Shown here: positions 53,353-63,945 of the stretch, piece after piece
How positions within the stretch are numbered: the stretch's first letter is position 1
How the letters are laid out: each line of letters opens with the position of its first letter
From: Escherichia phage WPEC3
DNA: 64,000 bases
Direction: 5' to 3' (one strand)
Sequence record: PV611058
Notes under the pieces: model-generated
The model's input: the letters and a program-made list of their open reading frames with translations, nothing else
The model's database searches: none
What the model was told of the DNA's origin: nothing
Program-made: the position numbers and the translations under genes

Positions 53353-53666
53353 TATATTTCAATCTCTATATATTTTTGGGTAATTAAGTAATCCCAGTAG
53401 TACTTCACTTGTTTTTGTATCTCAAGTAAAGCATAAAAATTAATTCTCTTATCCCATACAAGTGATTCCTGAAAAATAAATGATTCATGATCATCTCTGT
53501 AATCGCATTCAAGGAAGTCAGGAATATAATCACAATCGTGAAGATATTCAATCATTAAAGATTCATTACATCTTCTAATGGCAAGGAGCTGGAAATTATC
53601 ATGATCGAAGAAATACATTAAACTAATTGTACCAGGAATGTACTGAATACTGTATAAGAATTTCAT
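53352..53666 (-). CDS. FQ-core family paralog
   Basis: Motif ESFIFQESLVWDKR. Confidence 0.6.
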   Translation of the reverse strand: MKFLYSIQYIPGTISLMYFFDHDNFQLLAIRRCNESLMIEYLHDCDYIPDFLECDYRDDHESFIFQESLVWDKRINFYALLEIQKQVKYYWDYLITQKYIEIEI

Positions 53667-54106
53667 CGTTTGCCCTTATATGCTTCACGTACATATTCAT
53701 AATCCAAATAAAATCTTGTACTATCAATACTTTTAAAGTACCACATAATAACTAAAGTATCTAGTACTTCATCATCATACAAAGTACTATTCTGAAAGTA
53801 ATACTCTTCACTATCCCACGGACCTTTCAGTACTTCAAAGTTCAATTTTAAAGGTCTGCTGCGATTATAAAAACGGATTTCACCACCATAAGCATAACTG
53901 ATAAATTCTGCATCTGGATTGTATTGTGAAAAATCTGCGGGACTTTTGGAATTCAGCCCAAGAATAACTGTAGTTGTGGTAAAATCACTATCCTTGTAGT
54001 AGTTACCATTCTCGGCTTTGTATACTTCTTCGAACTTCCCAGCCTTGATATCTTCAATATATACCTGTAGTTCTTTTGCTTTATCCAGAGCACTTTGTAA
54101 TGACAT
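53663..54106 (-). CDS. FQ-core family paralog (quartet 53663-55482)
   Basis: Motif EEYYFQNSTL...VIMWYFKS...FYLDY; N-terminus MSLQSALDKAKEL. Confidence 0.65.
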   Translation of the reverse strand: MSLQSALDKAKELQVYIEDIKAGKFEEVYKAENGNYYKDSDFTTTTVILGLNSKSPADFSQYNPDAEFISYAYGGEIRFYNRSRPLKLNFEVLKGPWDSEEYYFQNSTLYDDEVLDTLVIMWYFKSIDSTRFYLDYEYVREAYKGKR

Positions 54107-54572
54107 TATCTTCCCCTACAGTATTCTCTACGTATTCATAATCGAAATAGAAACTATCAGAACCAATACTTTTAAAGTACCACATAATTACAATAACATC
54201 TAATTCTTCTTCATTGTACACAGTACTGTTCTGGAAGTAATATTCTTCACTATCCCACGGACCTTCCAGTACTGAATACGGAATGATTGTGTCATAATCA
54301 TCGTAATCAGGACTGTAAATTATAATATCTTCATCTCTACAATAACTAATGTACTGATTGTACATATGATATTCACAGTCATCAGTATCACCCGTATCAG
54401 TGTGTAGTACTAACGTTTCTGCACATATCTCTGACTCATCATAATCGTCGCGGTCTTTTACAAAAAATTCAGTATCAGATGTTTTATACACACCAGGCAC
54501 TGAACCTTCTTGTACCATAATCATGTACTCATGAATCTTCTTTGCTTCTTTCAATGCACTTTCTAATGACAT
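54081..54572 (-). CDS. FQ-core family paralog (quartet 53663-55482)
   Basis: Motif EEYYFQNSTV...VIMWYFKS; N-terminus MSLESALKEAKKI. Confidence 0.65.
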   Translation of the reverse strand: MSLESALKEAKKIHEYMIMVQEGSVPGVYKTSDTEFFVKDRDDYDESEICAETLVLHTDTGDTDDCEYHMYNQYISYCRDEDIIIYSPDYDDYDTIIPYSVLEGPWDSEEYYFQNSTVYNEEELDVIVIMWYFKSIGSDSFYFDYEYVENTVGEDNVITKCSG

Positions 54573-54574
54573 TA

Positions 54575-55015
54575 CTAATCCCCTGTACTTAAATATTCAC
54601 ATGCTCCCCAGTCAAGGAAGAAGGGTTCAAAATTCAATTCCTTAAAGTACCACAAAACAACCAAGGAATCAAGCATTTCTTGGTTAAAAATAAGACTCTG
54701 TTGGAAGTAATACTCTTCAGTACCCCACGGCCCATCAAGTACCCCGAAGTCAACAGGTGTATTTGATGTGTCAAAAGTAATCTTAGTACCTGGAATATAT
54801 ACAAAGAAACTAGTATATTGACTACATGAAGAGTACTGTATAGTATTGTCTTTATCATGGCCCATAAGTAAAATATCATCAGAGTATGTCTTTATACCTG
54901 ATAGATAATACTCATTACCAAATGCACTTACTTTATCACCATAGAAACCACTTTTTATGTTATCGTGGAAGTGATGTATTTTGTGTGCCAGTTTAAGTGC
55001 ACTTGCTAAACTCAT
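54575..55015 (-). CDS. FQ-core family paralog (quartet 53663-55482)
   Basis: Motif EEYYFQQSLI...VVLWYFKE; N-terminus MSLASALKLAHKI. Confidence 0.65.
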   Translation of the reverse strand: MSLASALKLAHKIHHFHDNIKSGFYGDKVSAFGNEYYLSGIKTYSDDILLMGHDKDNTIQYSSCSQYTSFFVYIPGTKITFDTSNTPVDFGVLDGPWGTEEYYFQQSLIFNQEMLDSLVVLWYFKELNFEPFFLDWGACEYLSTGD

Positions 55016-55482
55016 ATATCCTCTTTAATAACTCGTAGTAGATCCAAGTCCAGATAGAAGCTAGGACAATCGGTATTATTAAAGTACCACAGAATGACAA
55101 GCTTGTCAAGCACATATTCCTCGTAGATAGTATTCTGCTGGAAGTAGAACTCTTCACTTCCCCAGTCATTATCCAGTACTGAATATGGAAGATGTTTCTC
55201 TGCTGCACCAGTTATAATGTCAGTATATTGTATTAAAATATCAGCATCACGACAGAAGTACATGTAATTATCTTCCAGATTAACATCACACCCAGTGAGT
55301 GTTGTTTCAGAAGAATCTAAGTTTTCTTCGTACATGTGAATGTACTCACTACTGTCATCGTATATCATTCGACAATAAGCTTTACCTTCCTTGAATAGAT
55401 ACCCATTGAGTCGATTGAGTACTATTTCCTTTTTACATAAATCAATTAACTTAGCAATTTCTAATGCTCTTGCAAAACTCAT
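55012..55482 (-). CDS. FQ-core family paralog (quartet 53663-55482)
   Basis: Motif EEFYFQQNTI...VILWYFNN...FYLDL; N-terminus MSFARALEIAKLI. Confidence 0.65.
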   Translation of the reverse strand: MSFARALEIAKLIDLCKKEIVLNRLNGYLFKEGKAYCRMIYDDSSEYIHMYEENLDSSETTLTGCDVNLEDNYMYFCRDADILIQYTDIITGAAEKHLPYSVLDNDWGSEEFYFQQNTIYEEYVLDKLVILWYFNNTDCPSFYLDLDLLRVIKEDI

Positions 55483-55483
55483 A

Positions 55484-62182: not shown

Positions 62183-62480
62183 GGAACAGCCTCACTTTAC
62201 CTAACTTGTCATTGGATATTAATTCGTTAACAGCTTTCTGTATATTCCTTAATAATAGCACATCAAATCCTTTTGTGTCAAGCACACATTGCATTTGGAA
62301 GAATTCTTCTTCTGATAATGTATTAAAATCCACAAAATTGTCTAATATTACGTCATTATCCAAATGTGCCATGTGCCATGTATTTCTTTCGGAGCGTTTA
62401 ATAAAATTCCATCCATCTGGATAATCGGGTTCTAATTCTACATATATCCCCGATACTGTATAAAGCATTTTATATATCAT
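62163..62480 (-). CDS. FQ-core family paralog (close pair with 62501-62812)
   Basis: Motif LSEEEFFQMQCV; start set at internal Met (MIYKMLYTVSGIYVELE) by alignment with sister MKYKILYTLTLIYVELE. Confidence 0.55.
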   Translation of the reverse strand: MIYKMLYTVSGIYVELEPDYPDGWNFIKRSERNTWHMAHLDNDVILDNFVDFNTLSEEEFFQMQCVLDTKGFDVLLLRNIQKAVNELISNDKLGKVRLFHDLEVQ

Positions 62481-62500
62481 AACTATTGTACTCATTGCTT

Positions 62501-62812
62501 TCACTGTACGTCGATGTCATAATACGCTCCTACCTCATAATCTTTCTTGCTTTGGAATTCATTAACGACTTTCTGTATATTTCTTAATGTTACCATGTCA
62601 TGTCCGTACATGTCAACCACCAATTGCATTTGGAAAAATTCTTCTTCAGATAATGTATTAAAATCTATAAAATAATCCGTAACAACATGTTCGTCTAAAT
62701 TTGCCATGTACCATTGATTGGTATCGACCTCTTTAACCAAATTCCATGCATCTGAATCGGATTCTAATTCTACATATATTAATGTTAATGTATAAAGAAT
62801 TTTATACTTCAT
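62501..62812 (-). CDS. FQ-core family paralog (close pair with 62163-62480)
   Basis: Motif LSEEEFFQMQLV. Confidence 0.65.
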   Translation of the reverse strand: MKYKILYTLTLIYVELESDSDAWNLVKEVDTNQWYMANLDEHVVTDYFIDFNTLSEEEFFQMQLVVDMYGHDMVTLRNIQKVVNEFQSKKDYEVGAYYDIDVQ

Positions 62813-63308
62813 AACTATATCCTTGCATTAATAAATCATAAACGTTTGAAAGGTGCGGAATTTTGATATAAAATTTAAAACCCTTAATTAAAGGATTCGC
62901 GTACAATGAACTGAATAACTTTAGATAATGTATTTGACGAGGACTGTATAATAACGATTTCTGAAATAATTCAGCACTACAATCTGAACTAATATCAATT
63001 AAATCAATTCGTGCTTCTACTTCATCATCTTGTTTCAAAACATAAAAGAAATAATCGTTTGTGTTGACCCACAAATACCCTTCACTATTTTCGTATATAA
63101 CAGGAGATGCTTGTTCTGGATTGCCTTGGGCAAATGCTGCAAAACAAACTTTTGCATTACTTTCATCTTTAAACATAAACGATAATTTATCATATCTATC
63201 TTCTATGCGTAAATCACCTATAAAAATGTACTTATGCATAGAATGATTATTCTTGAGCATAAGCATTACTGTACTAATCTTGTGTGCTAATAATTCTATC
63301 TCATTCAT
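62802..63308 (-). CDS. FQ-core family paralog (close pair with 63385-63945)
   Basis: Motif AELFQKSLLYSP; C-terminus LLMQGYSYEV identical to sister gene. Confidence 0.65.
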   Translation of the reverse strand: MNEIELLAHKISTVMLMLKNNHSMHKYIFIGDLRIEDRYDKLSFMFKDESNAKVCFAAFAQGNPEQASPVIYENSEGYLWVNTNDYFFYVLKQDDEVEARIDLIDISSDCSAELFQKSLLYSPRQIHYLKLFSSLYANPLIKGFKFYIKIPHLSNVYDLLMQGYSYEV

Positions 63309-63314
63309 ATATTA

Positions 63315-63395
63315 TTACCTATTGATGGATACATCGTCATTGTCTTCTAATTCAACATAAATCATATCTTTTGTATAAAGCATTTTATACTTCAT
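63315..63395 (-). pseudogene. truncated remnant of a 62501-type paralog (26 codons)
   Basis: Encodes MKYKMLYTKDMIYVELEDNDDVSINR then stop; flanking ~40 nt repeat the junction seen at 62795-62835. Confidence 0.5.
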
Positions 63396-63945
63396 AACTA
63401 TATCCTTGCATTAAAAGATCATAAGCAATATCAACTAATTCTAAACGAATGAAAAATTTTAAATTATCTTTCAATGGATTCAAATGCATTGTACTAAACA
63501 ACATAAGATACTTCATTTGATTTGTATTGTATATTAGGGATGTCTGAAATACTTCTGCTTCATTGTAAGGATCAATGAATTTTATACCTTCTTCACTATA
63601 ATCCGTTTTGGAATTCTGATATATAAAATAATCATCACCATAATTGTACCACAAATAACCTTCAAAACTGGAATCAAATTCTGAATTTTCATTTCGCATT
63701 AAAGGTGATACTGAAATTGGATTTGAACCAACTGTTGCACAAACCTCAATGAAAGCATCTTCATTTCCCTTAACTTCTTCTTTGATTTTATCATTGTACT
63801 GTCCTGCAAAACCAGCTTTTACTTCCAAATATAAACTACTCCCAACTTTATTAATTCTTAAAAGGGAACTCTGTACTGTATTCGCATTGTTCAGCACTAA
63901 CGATATTGTGCAAATCTTATGTACCAATAACTCAATATCATTCAT
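63385..63945 (-). CDS. FQ-core family paralog (close pair with 62802-63308)
   Basis: Motif NEAEVFQTSLIYN; C-terminus LLMQGYSYEV. Confidence 0.65.
   Translation of the reverse strand: MNDIELLVHKICTISLVLNNANTVQSSLLRINKVGSSLYLEVKAGFAGQYNDKIKEEVKGNEDAFIEVCATVGSNPISVSPLMRNENSEFDSSFEGYLWYNYGDDYFIYQNSKTDYSEEGIKFIDPYNEAEVFQTSLIYNTNQMKYLMLFSTMHLNPLKDNLKFFIRLELVDIAYDLLMQGYSYEV

Follow-up and report, generated by a model that had tools for sequence, protein, structure and literature searches.

Evidence for old subfamilies and an unstable end in a tandem gene array of Escherichia phage WPEC3

The size of jumbo phage genomes is usually attributed to tandem duplication, although this process has hardly been documented. 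A stretch of 64,000 nucleotides (nt) from Escherichia phage WPEC3 (record PV611058; this whole stretch is referred to as the window) carries an array of small genes whose products share a Phe-Gln (FQ) motif, and the piece of this array examined here spans positions 53,353-63,945. A preliminary description had singled out two quartets of genes (A and B) and two pairs (C and D) and had taken them, together with a truncated gene between the last two genes and a repeated gene junction, as marks of recent duplication and decay. Are these blocks young copies, or do they have a longer history? The explanation that we regard as likely combines old subfamilies A and B with an unstable C/D end, in which the truncated gene, or stub, is the by-product of a crossover that stacked alleles. 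The process can be read at base-pair resolution, with two duplication joints mapped, a deletion between repeats in a sister genome and a drifting stub, and the 'paralogues' may be understood as old alleles placed side by side and not as fresh copies.

Megablast searches with positions 53000-64000 identified the window as part of an Asteriusvirus, a jumbo coliphage of the 121Q/PBECO4 type. All 35 phage records matched are Escherichia/Salmonella jumbo phages of this genus; WPEC5 was the best match (98.4% identity over the full length in a single piece), and fEgEco12 and CMSTMSU reached 97.6% and 96.4%. Every sizeable open reading frame (ORF) of the 53-64 kb region lies on the minus strand. Homologous regions were compared ORF by ORF in WPEC5, 121Q, PBECO4, UE-S1, ph0011, TH47, SP27 and EC.P1, and the C/D end additionally in slurp01, BF17 and Ecwhy_1, which makes twelve genomes with the window, or eleven relatives; joint probes were scored across 33 phage records.

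Haplotypes and joints at the C/D end

The C/D end is the currently unstable part of the array. Its genes are transcribed in the order D2 (63945-63385), C stub, D1 (63308-62802), C1 (62812-62501), C2 (62480-62163) and E (62182-61589), and the following features were recognized:

63385..63945, minus strand: D2, allelic to the upstream-position D' of 121Q/PBECO4 (55% amino acid (aa) identity)
63372..63414, no strand assigned: junction copy 2 (D2 to C stub), from repeat search
63332..63395, minus strand: C-type 5' stub, 64 nt, 21 codons
63309..63331, minus strand: D-leader copy, matching the leader upstream of D' in UE-S1, PBECO4 and SP27
62802..63308, minus strand: D1, found only in genomes with the duplicated state
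62789..62831, no strand assigned: junction copy 1 (D1 to C1) with D stop, Shine-Dalgarno sequence and C start, from repeat search
62501..62812, minus strand: C1, an allele known only in the window's clade and metagenomic relatives
62485..62520, minus strand: joint of the C1/C2 tandem duplication, from repeat and sequence comparison
62163..62480, minus strand: C2, orthologue of the single 121Q C gene (80% aa)
61589..62182, minus strand: E, D-type paralogue after the C genes; phrog_19795, expect value (E) 3e-76

One unit is present twice in direct orientation, as D2 with the C stub and as D1 with C1, with a start-to-start spacing of 583 nt; C1 and C2 also stand in direct orientation, 332-338 nt from start to start. 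The quartets and pairs of the preliminary description are real and stand out far beyond chance when all genes are compared with each other by blastp and nucleotide identity. C1 and C2 share 56% aa identity (E about 4e-32, blastp) and 72% nt identity, while D1 and D2 share 39-43% aa (E about 5e-29, blastp) and 59% nt, and the identity of their C-terminal YDLLMQGYSYEV, which had been pointed out, is indeed present. Seven haplotypes of this far array end occur among the twelve genomes, E being absent from UE-S1 and ph0011:

D'-C'-E: PBECO4, SP27
D'-C2like-E: 121Q
D'-C' (no E): UE-S1
D2-C'' (no E): ph0011
D'-stub-D1-C'-E: TH47, slurp01, BF17
D2-stub-D1-C1-C2-E: window, WPEC5, EC.P1
D2-C1-C2-E: Ecwhy_1

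The short ORF between D2 and D1 (63315-63395) had been described as the first 26 codons of a gene of the 62501 type. The ORF exists and has 26 codons, but it is composed of 64 nt of C-type sequence (63395 to 63332), so that only the first 21 codons are derived from a C gene, and of five codons from the copy of the D leader; nor is it of the 62501 type, because the C allele found in PBECO4 and TH47 (C') is closer (18 of 21 aa identical, compared with 14 of 21 for the 62501 gene). At ...GACGATG the stub turns into TATCCATCAATAGGTAA(TA)ATAT-ATG, the native leader located directly upstream of D' in UE-S1, PBECO4 and SP27. The copy in the window comprises 23 nt (63309-63331), and the native leader is also present in single-copy genomes. 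C codon 21 is connected to the native D leader in a single novel joint with ATG microhomology. A 171-nt probe for this joint was contiguous in about 13 of the 33 records, and in about 19 it was split into two pieces roughly 620 nt apart, as would be expected of the single-copy D-C state. The joint is common to TH47, slurp01, BF17, WPEC5 and EC.P1.

The stub is drifting. The window, WPEC5 and EC.P1 retain its frame of 26 codons, and in TH47, slurp01 and BF17 the stub is 6 nt shorter and carries a +1 frameshift, with an additional 12-nt duplication in BF17. Decay in the sense of accumulating frameshifts and indels is real; the decay of a gene that was once complete is not supported, as a full C gene between two D genes was encountered in none of the 11 genomes inspected and in none of the 33 records probed. 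With native D leader on the right of the joint, a single event suffices, and the stub is best read as born truncated at the duplication joint, probably without ever having been a whole gene at this site.

A second joint connects C1 and C2. Here the initial 36 nt of E occur a second time (62520-62485; identity to 62182-62147, 89%) and abut the AGTT+ATG of C2 at 62484-62478, and the corresponding probe matched over its full length in only seven of the 33 records, all from the window's clade. The genome of 121Q contains a third case of the same design as 63309-63395: at 6366-6958, gp366 (75 aa, without the FQ core) is a B3-type 5' stub followed by the extra family gene gp367, the order being B4 - B3 stub gp366 - gp367 - intact B3.

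The repeated junction near 62795-62835 is also real. Positions 62746-62841 and 63329-63424 agree in 80% over 96 nt, and the cores (62789-62831 and 63372-63414) match at 42 of 43 nt and hold an exact 33-mer, for which 100 shuffles yielded no match. It had been put forward as a mark of recency, and here the comparison with relatives leads to a different conclusion: TTAATGCAAGGATATAGTTATGAAGTATAAAATG is found at all D-to-C boundaries of the window and the 11 relatives, even between alleles that are only about 55% alike in protein. Three things coincide in it: the C-terminus of D (..LMQGYSYEV*), AAGGA as Shine-Dalgarno sequence of the C gene, and the overlapping beginning of C with its start codon and the codons next to it (MKYK). 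This triple coding constraint renders the junction sequence constant. Because the junction is alike at every D-to-C boundary regardless of the allele, the near-identity of the two window copies is no sign of recency. The junction would provide a homology patch of 43-96 nt, within which the D/C module may be deleted, as in Ecwhy_1, or shifted between allelic backgrounds.

Similarity and age of quartets A and B

The two quartets comprise the following genes, separated by one ORF that does not belong to the family:

53663..54106, minus strand: A1, 147 aa, long type; blastp identity 41%/33%/51% to A2/A3/A4; phrog_9317, E 4e-50; orthologues in 8 phages
54081..54572, minus strand: A2 (blastp, PHROGs, positional orthologues)
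54575..55015, minus strand: A3 (blastp, positional orthologues)
55012..55482, minus strand: A4 (blastp, positional orthologues)
55484..55669, minus strand: 61-aa non-family ORF (comparison with relatives)
55666..56010, minus strand: B1, short type; phrog_15629
56012..56377, minus strand: B2 (blastp, positional orthologues)
56374..56733, minus strand: B3 (blastp, PHROGs, positional orthologues)
56730..57113, minus strand: B4 (blastp, positional orthologues)

In all-against-all blastp, the paralogues of quartet A share 32-51% aa (E 1e-14 to 1e-27; 51-60% nt) and those of quartet B 35-52% aa (E 1e-13 to 1e-28; 55-61% nt), set against a background of 47 +/- 9% nt identity for random family pairs; most remaining family pairs gave no blastp hit at E<1e-3. 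The sequence motifs quoted for the quartets are nearly exact, apart from the fourth A gene, which starts with MSFARAL, and the fourth B gene, which has CNLYKGD. Positional orthologues of A1-A4 and B2-B4 in the relatives are 63-100% identical each; taken over the eight relatives, the quartet copies were also put at 69-100%, against 32-52% for paralogues. In neighbour-joining trees, A and B sequences cluster by position and not by genome, and the splits between paralogues are far deeper than those between orthologues, which argues that the duplications are older than the sampled genus and not recent. As judged from these trees, the duplications in A and B would predate the divergence of the sampled Asteriusviruses.

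Within the orthologue clades, deep alternative alleles occur, the distribution of which differs gene by gene. SP27 groups with the window for A1 and with PBECO4 for A2, and EC.P1 agrees with the window in 99-100% over A2-A4 and over 57896-60785, the identity dropping to 55-72% in between. This pattern is one of recombinational mosaicism. Since the divergence of the genus, quartets A and B would have changed mainly by allele replacement, i.e., by homologous recombination between co-infecting relatives that leaves gene-by-gene mosaics.

Gene content varies here as well. A fifth A-type gene (A5, 163 aa) is present in 121Q, PBECO4, SP27, EC.P1 and UE-S1 at the place where the window has the 61-aa ORF and B1; B1 occurs only in the window, WPEC5, TH47 and ph0011, B2 is missing from TH47, and 121Q has two extra genes between B4 and B3. 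The 61-aa ORF at 55484-55669 was considered as a remnant of A5 and rejected, because similarity to A5 was undetectable, which points to cassette replacement. In UE-S1, a 242-aa ORF (5988-6716) is an in-frame fusion of B4 and B3, caused by a lost stop codon or by a sequencing error.

Stacked alleles or duplicates in place

Near-identity is expected of young duplicates and was found for none of D1/D', D1/D2 and C1/C2. D1 and D' share 48-50% aa, whereas D1 is 95% identical to D1 of TH47 and D' orthologues differ from each other by only 1-12% aa. The nt identity between D1 and D' amounts to 98% at the 5' end and falls to 26-40% in the centre. At third codon positions, D paralogues agree in 48-56% (D' and D1 in 53%), orthologues in 92-99%. 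In TH47, the two C 5' copies are identical save for the indels in the stub, while its D' and D1 share 48% aa; C1 and C2 differ by 28% nt, compared with an overall difference of only a few per cent between the genomes that carry them. ph0011 has a recombination breakpoint within the 5' end of D2. As the D copies are too different for young duplicates formed in situ despite the almost identical C 5' copies that flank them, we propose that diverged alleles have been stacked.

The similar blocks would accordingly represent tandem-duplication subfamilies of different ages within the promoter-proximal part of one array with a single direction. At its C/D end, one illegitimate crossover at the ATG microhomology may have joined C codon 21 to the D leader, resulting in D - C-stub - D1 - C, and most likely it stacked two pre-existing diverged alleles that came from different parental genomes of co-infecting phages. 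A second event of the same design would have produced C1 - (E 5' stub) - C2 in the window's clade only, and the D/C module may later have reached other backgrounds through homologous exchange within the conserved ends of the genes. Recombination in mixed infections, the direction of the individual events and selection are what we infer to lie behind the arrangement.

Loss is illustrated by Ecwhy_1, in which the alignment to the window runs as far as the D1/C1 junction and continues from the D2/stub junction with 98.6% identity, exactly the 583 nt between them being missing. Ecwhy_1 is the closest relative of fEgEco12 with an average nucleotide identity of 97.0%, followed by vB_Ec-M-J with 94.4% and BF17 with 91.4% (PMC13070987). 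As more distant members of the clade keep the module, a deletion between the junction copies in Ecwhy_1 is the parsimonious explanation. Joints, polymorphism, orthology and stub decay are directly visible, and the comparison of array content in the relatives, with seven haplotypes in twelve genomes, the loss in Ecwhy_1, the indels in the stub and gp366 of 121Q, bears out the earlier proposal of unequal recombination with gain and loss of genes.

Several points weigh against the explanation given above. D1 as the sole D gene was seen in no genome, so the second parent is hypothetical, and only parsimony tells gains from losses. The GenBank records of Ecwhy_1 and TH47 are labelled 'UNVERIFIED', and an assembly that had collapsed might look like the 583-nt deletion; in the window itself, the assembly includes junk at 6.3-7.9 kb. 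Promoters and terminators, and likewise sigma-70-like sites, were not enriched over shuffles in the span. Finally, an old duplication in situ would look similar if D1 diverged fast and its flanks underwent gene conversion. According to this alternative, D' was duplicated in tandem long ago, D1 evolved very fast under diversifying selection with its ends and flanks kept alike by gene conversion or constraint, and the single-copy genomes are secondary losses. In the leader and over the initial 45 nt of D1, identity to D' is about 98% and then decays gradually along the gene, and Ecwhy_1 demonstrates that loss via flanking repeats is possible, both of which speak for it. We nevertheless consider it unlikely, as the centre of D1 has only random-level identity to D' while the orthologues of D' are so similar to each other, and as many independent losses would be needed for the approximately 19 of 33 records in the single-copy state. 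The original idea of recent duplications in situ followed by divergence, in which a complete C gene was born between the D genes and has since been mostly deleted, is improbable. It is true that the blocks are more alike internally than to the remaining array, that stub and repeated junction exist, and that the stub gains frameshifts and indels in some lineages; yet the divergence of the D paralogues at third codon positions is near saturation and lies far outside the range of orthologues, A1-A4 and B1-B4 form clades of positional orthologues across the genus, one event is enough to explain a joint whose right side is native leader, the complete middle C gene appears in no examined record, and the junction is equally conserved between highly diverged alleles that are not duplicated. 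'Recent' is therefore the part of the preliminary description that does not stand.

Two further explanations concern the stub itself. It might be a functional small ORF, a leader peptide that couples ribosomes from D2 into D1: its ATG lies within the conserved overlap with the D2 stop and uses the same Shine-Dalgarno sequence, 4 nt separate its end from the ATG of D1, and the 26-codon frame is maintained in three genomes. We find this quite doubtful, since the +1 frameshift in TH47, slurp01 and BF17 leaves 14-18 codons with a different end, the 12-nt duplication is tolerated, and amino acid changes (E to V) occur between close relatives. Length and sequence of the stub thus look unconstrained, and coupling could work with any short ORF. 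An assembly artefact, in which reads were mis-joined across the repeat to create the stub and the extra D gene, comes to mind because the same window has obvious assembly junk elsewhere. This reading is effectively refuted: the 53-64 kb region is collinear in one piece, at 96-98%, with WPEC5, fEgEco12 and CMSTMSU, the joint probe is 100% identical in fEgEco12, and the same joint recurs in about 13 independently sequenced phage genomes.

The FQ-motif family and its surroundings

Between the quartets and the C/D end, local searches with hidden Markov models (HMMs) detected six divergent family members, with small non-family ORFs interspersed:

57896-58522, minus strand: family member
58461-58805, minus strand: family member
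58802-59440, minus strand: family member
59530-60138, minus strand: family member
60135-60710, minus strand: family member
60785-61282, minus strand: family member

The identity of these six to their orthologues ranges from 24% to 100% gene by gene in a mosaic pattern. Positions 60711-60797 form the sole clear boundary between transcription units in the span: a terminator-like hairpin with a T-run (60797-60776, minus strand) is followed by a sigma-70-like promoter (TTGACA-17-TACAAT with TG, 60766-60738), and a terminator is annotated at the equivalent place in UE-S1.

A family profile was built on the recurring motif '..EE..FQ.S...D' and iterated over the ORFs of the window. Local HMM searches assigned 43 ORFs to the family (E 1e-5 to 1e-21), all on the minus strand and located at 38066-63945 except for one at 26295-26984; the latter (229 aa, SEEEHFQLM) is surrounded by unrelated genes, some 11 kb downstream of the main array. 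When all stop-to-stop segments of either strand were searched with the profile, no partial family hits appeared elsewhere in the window, and neither this search nor blastx of gaps >25 nt uncovered relics other than the C stub. At least five further members follow just past the end of the window, as seen in fEgEco12, so that the family has at least 48 members. With about 50 genes, it accounts for roughly 7% of the phage genes and was uncharacterised until defined by the present analysis.

Family proteins have 103-229 aa and are acidic (median isoelectric point 4.8). Phe-Gln is the sole invariant residue pair and is constant in both family alignments. Pfam, NCBIfam and PDB sequence profiles contained no match to the family, and no function was obtained from these or from PHROGs, which divides the family into at least six cross-matching groups of 'unknown function' (9317, 12674, 15629, 13866, 33987 and 19795). 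A profile search retrieved 142 proteins, all similar in size, from 1.84 billion cluster representatives; tblastn found full-length relatives with about 30% identity in the Klebsiella phages RaK2, K64-1 and Muenster, and Foldseek against viral models gave matches solely in 121Q, SP27, RaK2, GAP32, Serratia BF and Yersinia fHe-Yen9-03/04. The family is confined to Rak2-like jumbo phages.

AlphaFold predicted the long type (53663-54106) with a predicted local distance difference test score (pLDDT) of 93 and a predicted template modelling score of 0.87, and the short type (62501-62812) with a pLDDT of 86. The long type would consist of an N-terminal helix, seven strands and subsequent helices, FQ lying within helix 100-106, and the short type, which has no N-terminal helix, of a sheet, the FQ helix, a long helix and a terminal strand. 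Compared without superposition of coordinates, both models show a beta-sheet, an FQ-bearing helix, a long helix and a terminal strand. No convincing fold match was found for the family. Polo-box domains and the acidic p32/Mam33 proteins resemble the likewise acidic FQ proteins at the fold level only, through an antiparallel beta-sheet packed against helices; p32 has an N-terminal helix, seven strands and C-terminal helices, as does the long type.

Across the family, the invariant motif resembles protease sites, for example as EEGYFQGS (52466-52912), EEMYFQGS (48182-48664) and ELFQES (49741-50079). The site of the tobacco etch virus (TEV) protease is ENLYFQ|G/S and that of the rhinovirus 3C protease LEVLFQ|GP. 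A cleavage site of the 3C/TEV type was rejected, though no search for a protease was made, because FQ resides inside predicted helices (residues 100-106 and 56-65) and not in an exposed linker. The 10-residue pLDDT blocks around FQ have values of 97 in the long and 85-79 in the short type, and the residue following the Q is highly variable across the family. From the models, the FQ pair is probably structural.

The virion proteome table of phage phAPEC6, in which gp442c is a family member, contains no protein numbered gp400-gp469, which fits a non-structural role. With little confidence, we read the family as accessory proteins that are not part of the virion, in which a helical scaffold is conserved and the beta-sheet varies, and we would tentatively suppose that its members probably bind host or defence factors. 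It is a tentative possibility, and one we would not bet on, that the FQ proteins are binders of a new fold that serve host take-over or anti-defence and together form a hypervariable repertoire, their terminal helices being conserved and one face of the beta-sheet variable, with the conserved overlapping boundaries (stop, Shine-Dalgarno sequence, start) acting as built-in recombination joints that allow co-infecting jumbo phages to stack, swap and discard alleles. Such a repertoire, if it exists, would correspond, among phages, to the multigene families of African swine fever virus. Confident models without a convincing fold match make the family a reasonable target for screens for anti-defence or host take-over functions.

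In African swine fever virus (multigene families MGF110/360/505) and in the 'genomic accordions' of poxviruses, paralogous accessory genes form arrays near the genome end, the copy number of which varies by unequal recombination. The WPEC3 array resembles these systems as an array of paralogues near the end of a large double-stranded DNA virus genome with isolate-variable copy number. It differs in that it belongs to a bacterial virus, encodes an unrelated protein family without a shown link to host immunity, and holds stacked copies that appear to be old, diverged alleles and not fresh identical amplifications. For the hyperplastic regions of T4-type phages, Arbiol et al. are said to have described in 2010 a modular shuffling at conserved promoter/stem-loop boundaries (PeSL). 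There too, blocks of small, non-essential genes with a single direction are exchanged by crossovers in short conserved boundaries; in WPEC3, in contrast, the conserved boundary is a coding overlap of D stop, Shine-Dalgarno sequence and C start and not a promoter hairpin, and there is one terminator-plus-promoter gap only (60711-60797). Viral multigene arrays shaped by unequal and homologous recombination are already known, whereas the family and the base-pair anatomy are new detail; current ideas are not overturned.

Tandem gene arrays have been noted in the jumbo phages 121Q and G (Hua et al. 2017, mBio; PMC5646251), and this remark has been repeated in the phAPEC6 paper and in a 2026 review (PMC13282480). 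It concerns the same phage group and the same general idea of genome expansion by tandem duplication, without giving a family definition, joints, haplotypes or structure; in the literature we found only such one-sentence mentions of arrays and came across no account of the FQ family, of its joints or of its haplotypes. The wording 'very similar' used by Hua et al. fits an adjacent array at least as well as the FQ family, whose members mostly fail to find each other by blastp. This second tandem array lies past the window's right end (fEgEco12 21091-28192) and consists of about 23-32 tightly packed genes for proteins of 65-94 aa that share '[LF]LGTNYQE.[YF]V..YI..L', one of them interleaved with short FQ genes. 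Membership of both arrays in one superfamily was rejected (hhalign probability 0.4%).

The physical ends of fEgEco12 are known and consist of direct terminal repeats of 20,993 bp (PMC13070987). In fEgEco12 the same array genes occupy the plus strand from about 27 to 56 kb, close behind the left terminal repeat; they start about 6 kb past this 21-kb repeat. The terminal repeat (1-20993) contains about 56 small, widely spaced genes, one of which is annotated as 'protein spackle', and the arrays that follow are packed with overlaps and without gaps.

The junk in the window's assembly (6300-7920) is made up of poly-C/poly-G runs of about 70 nt and tandem repeats of 151-155 nt, i.e., read length. 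It also contains AGATCGGAAGAGCACACGTCTGAACTCCAGTCAC plus index, which we take to be Illumina adapter. Its proportion of guanine and cytosine is 0.49, compared with 0.30-0.38 elsewhere, and the ORFs called there are meaningless. In the 204-nt gap upstream of B4 (57114-57317), a G10 run is followed by AAAAAAATTTCCGCTGAAAAACATGCTAAGGTATATGTTT, and the same 40 nt recur inverted and joined to poly-C in the junk region at 7227-7266; the G10 homopolymer probably seeded the misassembly. Downstream of the array (3494-26033), the window encodes a PIN-PhoH fusion (3494-4933), an ATP-dependent DNA ligase (15446-16864), a polynucleotide kinase-phosphatase (23136-24068), a T4-type RNA ligase 1 (24891-26033) and two metallophosphatases, which together represent an RNA-repair and nucleic-acid set.

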